A stretch of 64,000 nucleotides of DNA, from contig OZ240248.1 of NCBI GenBank assembly GCA_965198235.1, forward strand, positions 2,816,001 through 2,880,000. Direction: 5' to 3'. The position numbers and the translations under genes are program-made. The DNA comes from Candidatus Poribacteria bacterium. GTDB lineage: Bacteria; Poribacteria; WGA-4E; WGA-3G. The notes beneath the pieces are model-generated. The model saw only the letters and a list, made by a program, of their open reading frames with translations, was not told where the DNA came from and did no database searches. This document shows positions 20,947 through 23,266 of this stretch, piece after piece; position 1 is the stretch's first letter, and every line of letters starts with the position of its first letter.

Positions 20947-22539
20947 ATGAAAACTTTCGACAACAAAATTGCACTTAATCTTGACGATGAGGCAGAAGTC
21001 TCCGTCAAAGGTTTCATCGCGCCGATTGAATACACCCAATACAATTTCCACGTGGAGTGGGACGAGTTGGCAAACTTTCGAGCTGCTGAACCAGAAAAAC
21101 AGTATCCCACATCCGTTTTTCAAGCGTTTTTCCCATCGGAACCGGTTTCGATCGGTGAATGTTGGGAGATTCAAGAAGAGGACACGCTAACGTTACTGAA
21201 GCAACTTCATCCCAACCCACGCCTGAAGCTGACCATTGACTCAGGAGATTCGTATGGTTTGTGGGCATGTCTGCGCGCTTACAATGACGGACTTACTGAA
21301 ATTGTGTTCCGTATCCATGCGGAATTCGTCATGGAAAGCGGTAAGTTTACCCCGTCACAATTTGCTGGACATCTGGTTATTGACCGGGTCGAAGAGAAGG
21401 TCGTCTCTTTCAAAATGTACGTACCTCCAACGACACTGAATTTCGATGCCGGTTGGACGCAAGAAGATGGTGGAACTTTTGTGGAAATCGGCTTTTGTCC
21501 GCAGATGGAACTTGCTGTTGGCACACAACCGCATGATGTCGAATTCACAGCGTCAATCACGCAAGAAGAAGCCGAACGCGCCCTGATATCGCGTTCCTAC
21601 AAGTTTCAGCAAATCAACTGGGTATCGCTGGAGGAAGCATTGGAAATGGCACCCGCAGAACAGAAACCGATTCATGTCATCTCAGTAGATGGACCGCTCT
21701 TCGACGAGGCGTGCTGAGGGAGTGGCAAAGGCCTGAGGGCAGGTGAGCTCTCCGAAGATCGAATCATAGCGTTCTTGAACGAAAACTTTATCAACACGTG
21801 GGTCCCGAATGCGGAATTAGGACGAACACCGAGTTTGCGAGAACCGATTGCGAGGCGACGCGAGCGCGAAGGTAAGACGTTCGATACAACGCACGCCTTG
21901 GCGCAGGCAATTATAAAAAGTTGGAAAAAAGGGTCACCGGTGGACTGCTTGGTTATCTCGCATGAGTTTGAACCGATGGGCAGCGTAGACTACAATGAGT
22001 TCCCTGAGAACTTAGGGGAATTTGACGATGACACAGAGGCTTACCTATTCTTTCTTGAGTCATCCTTGGAAGGAAAACGTCCTGGACTGGGCGACCTTAT
22101 CCTTACCCGTGAACAGCCTTCACAGGAGGTGGTAGACACTTTTCGCACCCCGAAGGTAGCACACCAGGACTACACTGTTGTCGTAATTGATGCCACAACC
22201 TTTGAAAGAGGTGGCACGCTCACCATTAACATCCACGTCGGTAGAGACGATGCCATAGGAATATTCCATCTCCTCGACGGAGACAGTAAACTTCCAACAG
22301 AAAAAGCTCCTGATGGCATTGATCCCGCAGTATGGAACGATCAAGAAAGTGAGGAATATAAGAAGGCATTTGATGCACTTACCAAAGTATGGGGTATATT
22401 CCCCGATGAAACTGGGCGAATTACGTACCAGTTCGATCGCGGTCAACGCTTTAAATTGTGTGCGACTGGAGATCAATGGGGTGGAGTAGGGACCATAAAT
22501 GCTTTTCACGCAAGAATATCTGTAGAGCCAGCAGACTGA
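20947..22539 (+). CDS. Selenoprotein N-like protein; in-frame TGA at 21715-21717 proposed as Sec257 (530 aa read-through product)
   Basis: Frame continues past TGA as DEAC-U-GSGKGLRAGELSEDRIIAFLNENFINTW; SelN-like motifs on both sides of the TGA; hairpin downstream. Confidence 0.85.
21715..21753 (+). promoter_or_regulatory. Candidate bacterial SECIS element
   Basis: Stem GAGGGC (21735-40) / GCTCTC (21747-52) with loop AGGTGA starting 23 nt after the TGA; folded by eye. Confidence 0.55.
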
Positions 22540-22579
22540 GGATCAGTTACCAGTTTACAATGGAAGTGTGTCCCGATGC

Positions 22580-23266
22580 TCATCCAACATCCGATAACCG
22601 CACAAACTGGTATCCATCTCGTTTAAGTGCCGCGATGATTCGGTCTGTCGCTTCAACCGTCCCTGAACGGTCCGCCTTCTTATTCTCTGCTTTGCCATCA
22701 TGTAGAACGATAATCGAACCCGGCTTTGTCTTCTTCAATACCGTCTCAGTGATCTTGTCAGGATTCTGTGTTGTCCAATCCCAACTCCATACATTGCAGC
22801 TGATGTGCGTTCGATCCCCTTTCGCGAGTACCCACGCCACCGGCAGAAACCTTGTCAACACCGGTGCTCGAAACACGACTTCACCTGTAATGTTGAATTG
22901 TTGAAGCAGGTTGTCCGTGCGTTCAATCTCCCGTCGAACATAGGTCGGTGGCAAGAAACCCAGCAGCGGGTGGCTGTAGGAATGATTGCCGATCTGATGT
23001 CCCTCAGCGATAACCCGTTTCACTGTTTCAGGATACTTTTCAACCCGATTTCCAATCATGAAGAATGTGGCTTTGACGTTGTGCTTAGCAAGGACATCAA
23101 GCAACCGATCGGTATAAGGCGGATTCGGTCCATCGTCATAGGTGAGTGCGACAATCCGTTGGTCTGTGTTCAGGTGAACAACATTCTTTCCGAACGGCGG
23201 TCTAAGGAAAAGCCATAGTAATGTCGCCGTTGCAAATCCTACCACAGCGGTGATTATTAAACTCAT
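22580..23266 (-). CDS. Polysaccharide deacetylase (NodB/CE4)
   Basis: ALTYDDGP, GNHSYSH, IIVLHD; N-terminal anchor. Confidence 0.93.
   Translation of the reverse strand: MSLIITAVVGFATATLLWLFLRPPFGKNVVHLNTDQRIVALTYDDGPNPPYTDRLLDVLAKHNVKATFFMIGNRVEKYPETVKRVIAEGHQIGNHSYSHPLLGFLPPTYVRREIERTDNLLQQFNITGEVVFRAPVLTRFLPVAWVLAKGDRTHISCNVWSWDWTTQNPDKITETVLKKTKPGSIIVLHDGKAENKKADRSGTVEATDRIIAALKRDGYQFVRLSDVG

Follow-up and report, generated by a model that had tools for sequence, protein, structure and literature searches.

A covarying hairpin behind the in-frame UGA of a selenoprotein N-like gene of Poribacteria, a probable bacterial SECIS element

The hairpin at positions 21735-21752 of the window (the whole stretch of 64,000 nucleotides of Candidatus Poribacteria DNA, from contig OZ240248.1, that was analysed) is very probably an ordinary bacterial SECIS element of a selenoprotein N-like (SELENON-like) gene, predicted from comparative sequence evidence to be read by SelB. 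We take it to be more than a chance structure because of its conservation and covariation across homologues, and not because of its stability. Substitutions among these homologues point to purifying as well as compensatory selection on the hairpin, within a gene family that is large and intact. The element most likely works like known bacterial SECIS elements and does not represent a new mechanism. These observations provide strong comparative evidence that a SELENON-like family in Poribacteria consists of true selenoproteins, produced through the bacterial pathway.

The gene and its in-frame UGA

Similarity to animal selenoprotein N was present on either side of the UGA in the gene at 20947..22539 (Table 1). 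Among the proteins retrieved by a search of the whole library were some named selenoprotein N, from a bivalve and a hagfish, with 32-33% identity over 244-254 aligned positions (pairwise E values of 3e-30 and 4e-28), and the hagfish alignment passed through the region of the UGA, the C-U site. The similarity to the animal protein was limited to residues ~82-307, the C-terminal 220 aa being unrelated, and the Pfam and NCBIfam models run on the bacterial protein matched no family. In a midpoint-rooted tree of 109 protein sequences, most of whose tips are unnamed and from which no direction of transfer is claimed, the four animal-like sequences grouped together (support 1.0), and a long branch separates them from the window's protein (P0001).

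The start at 20947 and the truncation at the UGA are backed by database relatives of 251-262 aa that span residues 1-256 of the query. The Cys that precedes the UGA is the last residue in 95 of the best 150 representatives, and some read on with Cys. The frame downstream of the UGA has a TTG start of its own. In other clades the residue aligned with the predicted selenocysteine (Sec) is Cys, and these Cys-type relatives are single open frames; the Cys-type profile yielded 18 proteins, and the viral collection one weak 44-residue match that was left out of account. Several relatives differ in architecture. The fused homologue P0129 carries PF04542 and PF08281, which we take to be sigma-70 regions, and the N-terminus of P0193 looks similar, while P0170 and P0236 have long unrelated N-terminal parts.

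TGA occupied the Sec-codon position at 145 of 146 distinct homologous sites, the remaining one being TCA, and the other same-genome copies that span the site all have UGA at the identical place (4/4). These counts come from a discovery set in which 69 of 69 loci gave 150 sites, 146 of them distinct; the 150 UGA sites used below are the 145 TGA sites plus five genome copies, the single TCA site being left out. A larger set of 179 genes remained from 203 UGA site records once 24 that were duplicates or had short flanks had been dropped. At L137 and L160, which are fragments, the central match does not include the site. Most of the closest loci in the genome collection (67/69) are labelled Candidatus Poribacteria, with 63-84% identity, and the SELENON-like family was found in 45 of the 61 sampled genomes of the phylum, with 1-15 copies each and an open frame behind the UGA. 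Tandem arrays are common (L021-L089, G049:C38, G050:C1), with copies ~1.5-2 kb apart, up to 15 per genome and of varying C-terminal length. Unlike many relatives, the window's copy has no tandem SELENON-like neighbour; it is flanked by an IMP dehydrogenase-like ORF and a convergent polysaccharide deacetylase-like ORF, both named from their translations. A metatranscriptome contig from sponge run X5 spans 21647-22032 with 5 differences and bridges the UGA and the hairpin; such contigs show neither strand nor transcription, and it carries no weight as evidence here.

The codon before the UGA is fixed as TGC (178/179 homologues), although 55% of the Cys codons of the genome are TGT, and the one Cys-type homologue with DNA has TGT at this place. 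Silent constraint reaches both into the spacer and to codon -1, and the hairpin gives no explanation for either. A P-site codon effect is possibly behind the fixed TGC. Pairing of the C before the UGA with nt 10-13, present in a single fold, would be one way to account for the retained TGC; it was rejected, since copies of the f2 family often break one such pair (GGA at codon +3), yet TGC stays. After the terminal TGA of the same gene, no hairpin comparable to the SECIS-like one was found.

Table 1. Features of the SELENON-like gene and of its putative SECIS element in the window
Feature	Positions	Strand	Remarks
SELENON-like gene	20947..22539	+	530 aa if the internal UGA is Sec (U257); usual gene calling gives two ORFs
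Cys codon TGC immediately 5' of the UGA	21712..21714	+	TGC in 178/179 homologues
In-frame UGA	21715..21717	+	Predicted selenocysteine codon, motif DEAC-U-GSG
17-nt spacer	21718..21734	+	Silent sites moderately constrained; 5' part probably within the ribosome during decoding
Competing long fold	21719..21753	+	Lower stem 21719-21726 with 21747-21753; upper stem GCCUG/CAGGU 21731-21744, loop AGGG
5' arm GAGGGC	21735..21740	+	nt 21-26 of the SECIS-like hairpin
Apical loop AGGUGA	21741..21746	+	G28 and U30 near-invariant; predicted SelB contact
3' arm GCUCUC	21747..21752	+	Register 2, nt 33-38; register 1 (nt 31-36, 4-nt loop) is the commoner pairing among homologues
Terminal TGA stop of the same gene	22537..22539	+	Internal control; best hairpin candidate after the stop -1.3 kcal/mol

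The hairpin, its conservation and its covariation

With nucleotides numbered from the U of the UGA (nt 1), the window reads TGC TGA GGG AGT GGC AAA GGC CTG AGG GCA GGT GAG CTC TCC at 21712-21753. The hairpin at 21735-21752 has six pairs, one of them G-U (21738-21749), a UGA-to-loop distance of 23 nt and G as the second loop base, in exact agreement with the original prediction of a GAGGGC-AGGTGA-GCTCTC stem. The overlapping stem GCCTG/CAGGT that had been named as an alternative is also present, at 21731-21744. Hairpin enumeration recovered both, at -7.6 kcal/mol for the reported stem versus -5.2 kcal/mol for the alternative. In the bacterial SECIS model of bSECISearch, as the Fig. 2 legend of PMC13188914 gives it, the loop has 3-9 nt and the upper stem 4-16 bp, a G stands in the first two loop positions and is usually followed by G or U, the UGA-to-loop distance is 16-37 nt and the energy is at most -7.5 kcal/mol. 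With its 6-bp stem, 6-nt loop, G at the second loop position with another G behind it, spacing of 23 nt and energy of -8.6 kcal/mol, the window's hairpin falls within all four constraints of that legend.

Thermodynamics alone was uninformative. The energy was -8.6 kcal/mol for 21730-21760, -8.8 kcal/mol with the first 14 nt blocked and -7.6 kcal/mol for the isolated hairpin. The reported pairs had a probability of only 0.02 in a 60-nt fold of free RNA, and the minimum-energy fold of the free 46-nt RNA was the alternative stem with its lower stem (-15.4 kcal/mol), the reported stem emerging only once the 5' part was omitted (31-mer, -8.6 kcal/mol). No stability beyond chance was seen, as 23 of 200 shuffles of the 46-mer and 104 of 200 of the 31-mer were as good, and folding z values ranged from -1.30 to +1.12 over five windows. 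Rfam gave no match at gathering score in the window and one unrelated match (E 4.3) in 21600-22800. When the same peptide was recoded synonymously (n = 3000), 29% of the sequences yielded some hairpin passing the bacterial consensus; the full 6-bp stem at the exact place arose in only 0.87%.

The comparison across homologues was far more informative than folding of the single sequence. Six pairs in one of two registers were found in 174 of the 179 UGA genes and five pairs in the other 5, the full six-pair stem was present at 149 of the 150 discovery sites versus 4.3 expected from synonymous recoding, and the bacterial consensus as coded here was passed by 134/150 sites versus 40.6 expected; percent-paired figures of this kind are inflated, because the registers were chosen on the discovery set and the homologues are related. 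Among held-out UGA sites from later-fetched loci (n = 39, with 29 from two other families), 35 had six pairs and 4 had five.

Silent sites told the same story of local constraint. For the entropy profile, 44 of the 179 genes were dropped as near-duplicates, leaving 135 genes with less than 90% identity. Codons +6 to +11 had the lowest synonymous entropy among 301 six-codon windows (0.22), versus 0.66 in the lowest-scoring window elsewhere in the gene and 0.77 for the median column. The entropy ratio was 0.28-0.66 in spacer codons +1 to +5, versus the gene median of 0.77, and about 1 at codons -4 and -3, where silent sites are saturated. The Arg codon at +7 is AGA or AGG in 150/150 sites, versus 18.5% genome-wide, the third position of codon +9 is T (U) in 150/150, and codon +11 is CTC in 147/150. 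Loop nt 27-30 read AGGT in 98 of the 179 genes, AGTT in 58, GGGT in 18, ACGT in 4 and CGTT in 1.

The 179 genes fall into 132 with register 1, where the 5' arm pairs with nt 31-36, the loop is AGKU and codon +10 encodes Val or Ala, and 47 with register 2, the window's own, where the 5' arm pairs with nt 33-38 and codon +10 is Glu, Pro or GTG-Val. In register 1 the silent pair 24-33 is GC in 92 genes, GU in 22, AU in 18 and AC in none. It ranked 1 of 741 by APC-corrected mutual information, and U33 is found in all 15 maximal A24 clades, a count that overstates the number of independent origins. Classes defined by amino acids gave the same result as groups defined by register, A24 being found in 0 of 84 C33 sites. 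In register 2 the top covarying pair, by a narrow margin, is 21-38, which changes from G-C to C-G at the cost of two amino-acid changes (Leu to Phe, Ser to Cys); the evidence here is thinner, with a single pair changed on both sides in one clade. The covariation score of this stem was reached by 0 of 500 shuffles in register 1 (110 rows) and by 4 of 500 in register 2 (37 distinct rows), these being counts of pair-counting scores in groups defined with the feature itself and not probabilities. The covariation across homologues that had been proposed as a check is thus found at silent pair 24-33, in a stem kept by 174 of the 179 TGA-containing genes, and the choice made between the two overlapping stems was borne out as well: GAGGGC/GCTCTC covaries and GCCTG/CAGGT shows no covariation.

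Parsimony placed five shifts from register 1 to register 2. The stem has likely slid repeatedly between registers, judging from the alternation of a 4-nt AGKU loop with a 6-nt loop or a 7-bp GGUC form. Such sliding would let codon +10 vary among Val, Ala, Glu and Pro without changing how far the loop G and U and the 5' arm lie from the UGA.

DNA of copies with another codon in place of the UGA was available for four sequences (n = 4 only): those with TGG, GGA and TCA have six pairs each and the one with TGC has five. The decay that would be expected in copies lacking the UGA is not seen, and this speaks against specificity if so small a sample is informative. At L134, L162 and L065 the UGA is now TGG (Trp), GGA (Gly) or TCA (Ser) and the hairpin is intact; these copies look like recent changes in UGA clades (Sec loss) or assembly errors. 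The Cys (TGC) copy has lost the AGR and CTC codons and kept the GGUC loop. A narrower alignment made for Cys-codon DNA gave 2 loci from 147 pattern matches, one with Cys and one with UGA.

Selenocysteine machinery and other selenoprotein genes

The genome encodes selB beside tRNA-Sec, selA and a UGA-containing selD, all above cut-offs. SelB carries both winged-helix families, and the sole tRNA found with a UCA anticodon is tRNA-Sec. Among the 61 sampled genomes of the phylum, 60 have selA, including all 45 with the SELENON-like family, and the genome lacking selA has no copy. The view that the gene is adapted to bacterial SelB decoding agrees with this full SelA/SelB/SelD/tRNA-Sec set and with the compensatory selection on the hairpin, binding by SelB being predicted.

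A ribosome stalled with the UGA in its A site would cover the next 7-11 nt, and this coverage would remove the competing long fold and allow the short hairpin to form. SelB-GTP-Sec-tRNA(Sec) would then bind the G and U bases of the loop, the UGA 23 nt upstream would be read as Sec, and the loop-bound SelB would deliver Sec at position 257 to yield the 530-aa protein. The proposed steps follow the bacterial Sec insertion pathway as set out in PMC13188914 and PMC8704476, and unwinding of a lower SECIS helix is described in the former.

A coding-potential scan of the genome yielded 23 candidate UGA sites. Other selenoprotein-type UGA sites numbered 17, namely 16 of these 23 with a Pfam domain across the UGA, and SelD. 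The Pfam-spanned sites are in HMA (three), AhpC/Prx (five), thioredoxin (three), FdhA, rhodanese, DUF3179, UGSC and Rdx domains. Comparison with the SECIS elements of the same genome was another of the checks proposed at the outset. Each of two G-loop hairpin filters was passed by 11 of the 17 sites, versus 40 and 73 of 480 ordinary TGA ends, the filters being imperfect as 6 of the 17 sites fail them. The hairpin loops at these sites include GGU, GGA, GUA, GUU and GGUCU, located 16-24 nt from the UGA. One thioredoxin site has an AGUU loop with 23-nt spacing, like register 1 of the SELENON-like genes, and in the genome's FdhA the spacing is 18 nt, as in E. coli fdhF.

The selenoproteome of this genome (G000:C1) is large, with 17 known-type UGA sites and 5 SELENON-like genes. 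Among its members are three U-x-x-C proteins with an HMA domain, and one gene in which each of two Prx domains has a UGA. A further candidate selenoprotein (L102:505-1347, minus strand, G000:C1:736156) carries, upstream of a DUF4159 match, the motif LDI-U-GSGIGHLRFG; 33 nt after its UGA comes a GGUC loop on a 6-bp stem. Matches to this candidate were present in 13 of 21 genomes, and 14 of the 15 have one TGA. The motif recovered 5 of 10 loci, in all of which the hairpin is identical, and this DUF4159-type candidate was not recognised in Table 1 of PMC13188914. In a Big_5-domain lipoprotein-like gene (L106:46-744, plus strand, G000:C1:3047932), the motif TSPD-U-CGP is followed by a 6-bp stem with a GGUC loop 22 nt after the UGA; as most relatives have neither a stop nor Cys there, this UGA may have been gained recently, may come from a nonsense change or may be due to chance.

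Alternative explanations and known systems

The long fold, with its AGGG loop 18 nt after the UGA, is very unlikely to be the true SECIS, even if it is the minimum-energy structure of the free RNA, has the loop spacing of E. coli fdhF, keeps three inner pairs at 85-100% and runs through moderately constrained spacer codons. Without blocking, it wins in 55 of the 150 homologous sites, the reported stem being favored in 95. Once the UGA and the following 7-11 nt, the bases a ribosome would cover, are blocked, the reported stem prevails in 149/150, and its probability in the window's copy rises from 0.02 to 0.83-0.88. All five upper pairs of the long fold are present in just 73 of the 179 genes, its lower stem is often broken (53-91% paired at variable positions), and its covariation does not exceed that of shuffles, with 109 of 500 as good in register 2 and 310 of 500 in register 1. 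The compensatory changes at 24-33 and 21-38 are compatible solely with the reported stem.

Other readings accept the short hairpin or the UGA and give them another meaning. The hairpin could have no function of its own and simply follow from shared ancestry and the conserved peptide L-R-A-G-x-L-S: the loose consensus is passed by 29% of synonymous recodings, and Cys-type homologues keep the same peptide, the one with DNA forming 5 of the 6 pairs with a GGUC loop. This is most improbable given that rare synonymous codons are fixed (AGR and the third U of codon +9, each 150/150), that constraint peaks exactly at the hairpin with nearby silent sites saturated, and that silent sites covary. We have equally little confidence in a SelB-independent stimulator of read-through, like the SRE of animal SELENON, that would lead to insertion of Trp or Cys or slow termination. 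The animal SRE does promote read-through without a SECIS, according to 10.1101/014928 and PMC6844570, and there are both a copy with TGG and a database protein that reads Trp. However, the loop keeps the G/U pattern described for SelB binding in PMC8704476, selA is present in all sampled carrier genomes, the aligned residue alternates with Cys elsewhere, and no UCA-anticodon tRNA was found in the genome besides tRNA-Sec. That the UGA is a true stop, separating two genes or marking a decayed fragment of eukaryotic origin, would fit the gene calls, in which the protein terminates at this place (for 95 among the best 150 representatives), and the TTG start downstream. It is the least credible reading, as the alignment with animal selenoprotein N runs through the UGA, the Cys-type relatives are single open frames, and 45 of 61 genomes keep the UGA with an open frame behind it, at 1-15 copies each. 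Moreover, in a tree of this broad family (midpoint root, mostly unnamed tips) a wide distance separates the window's protein from the animal clade. The original argument against a decayed eukaryotic fragment is therefore sustained by a large intact family that has retained the UGA and a frame open beyond it.

A bacterial SECIS of the ordinary kind remains the preferred reading. Gene callers split SELENON-like genes in two, and the family is missing from the 119 prokaryotic families of Table 1 in a 2026 review (PMC13188914). In a literature search with subscription papers mostly outside its scope, we found no paper on a bacterial SELENON homologue and no covariation analysis of the SELENON-like hairpin. 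Recombinant production of a Sec-containing relative of a human myopathy protein may become possible from a bacterial gene that brings an in-frame SECIS of its own. The 179 natural variants would also serve as a mutational map of a SECIS under protein-coding constraint, including its likely repeated sliding between registers.

Compared with known bacterial SECIS elements, the window's hairpin has the same location, inside the coding region directly 3' of a UGA aligned with Cys or Sec, and differs in that two alternative registers coexist in the family. It shares with the SECIS of E. coli fdhF the GCA-GGU top of the stem and the G/U loop, and register-2 copies of the Pro type carry the same GGUC loop. 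The fdhF loop, however, lies 18 nt after the UGA versus 23-24 nt here (5 nt farther in the window), the six-pair stem of the SELENON-like genes has no bulged U, and there is no further sequence match.

Selenoprotein N of animals has an ER membrane anchor and an EF-hand calcium sensor, together with a thioredoxin-like fold and redox activity. Its calcium sensing is treated in PMC12936836. Sequence homology between the animal and bacterial proteins holds through the C-U-G-S-G site; the ER anchor and EF-hand, by contrast, were not encountered in the window's protein, where there is no Pfam match and the alignment starts at residue 82-83, and the Poribacteria family has many paralogues per genome.

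The likeness to the SRE of animal SELENON (SEPN1), drawn in the original prediction, held in part. The SRE likewise lies just 3' of the homologous UGA and within a homologous peptide (UGSGKGLR in the bacterial protein, SGRTLR in the animal one, the latter aligned after a two-residue gap in the gene model), a resemblance to the SRE that is also noted in PMC12936836. The structural correspondence is probably no more than an analogy: the bacterial hairpin starts at nt 21, and the two animal peptides compared cannot encode G28, which argues at peptide level against a shared loop. From the peptides, animal codon +9 (Thr or Ile) would place A at nt 28, versus G28 in 175 of the 179 bacterial genes. 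The SRE mutations G463V, R466Q and R469W/Q, reported for animal SELENON, map in our own alignment to codons +1, +4 and +7, mostly the bacterial spacer, which gives the SRE more overlap with the spacer and the competing long fold than with the conserved hairpin. In animals the SRE also serves as an accessory element of a SECIS in the 3' UTR, which SBP2 and EEFSEC read, whereas the bacterial gene has no Rfam match downstream and its host has the bacterial machinery.

Descent of an SRE from a bacterial SECIS has been proposed for SPS genes in 10.1101/014928. That the bacterial hairpin and the disease-linked human SRE descend from one element is doubtful, though we regard it as less remote than any of the rival readings above. 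If they did, SELENON would have passed between bacteria and a eukaryotic lineage with its in-frame SECIS, and the SRE would be an in-frame SECIS that animals kept after decoding moved to the 3'-UTR SECIS. The long fold (nt 5-39), within which the codons hit by the human SRE mutations lie, would then be the shared ancestral shape and would act in bacteria as a switch triggered by the ribosome. With the SELENON-like family, the idea that a eukaryotic SRE is a relic of a bacterial SECIS becomes testable in the very gene where the SRE was defined.
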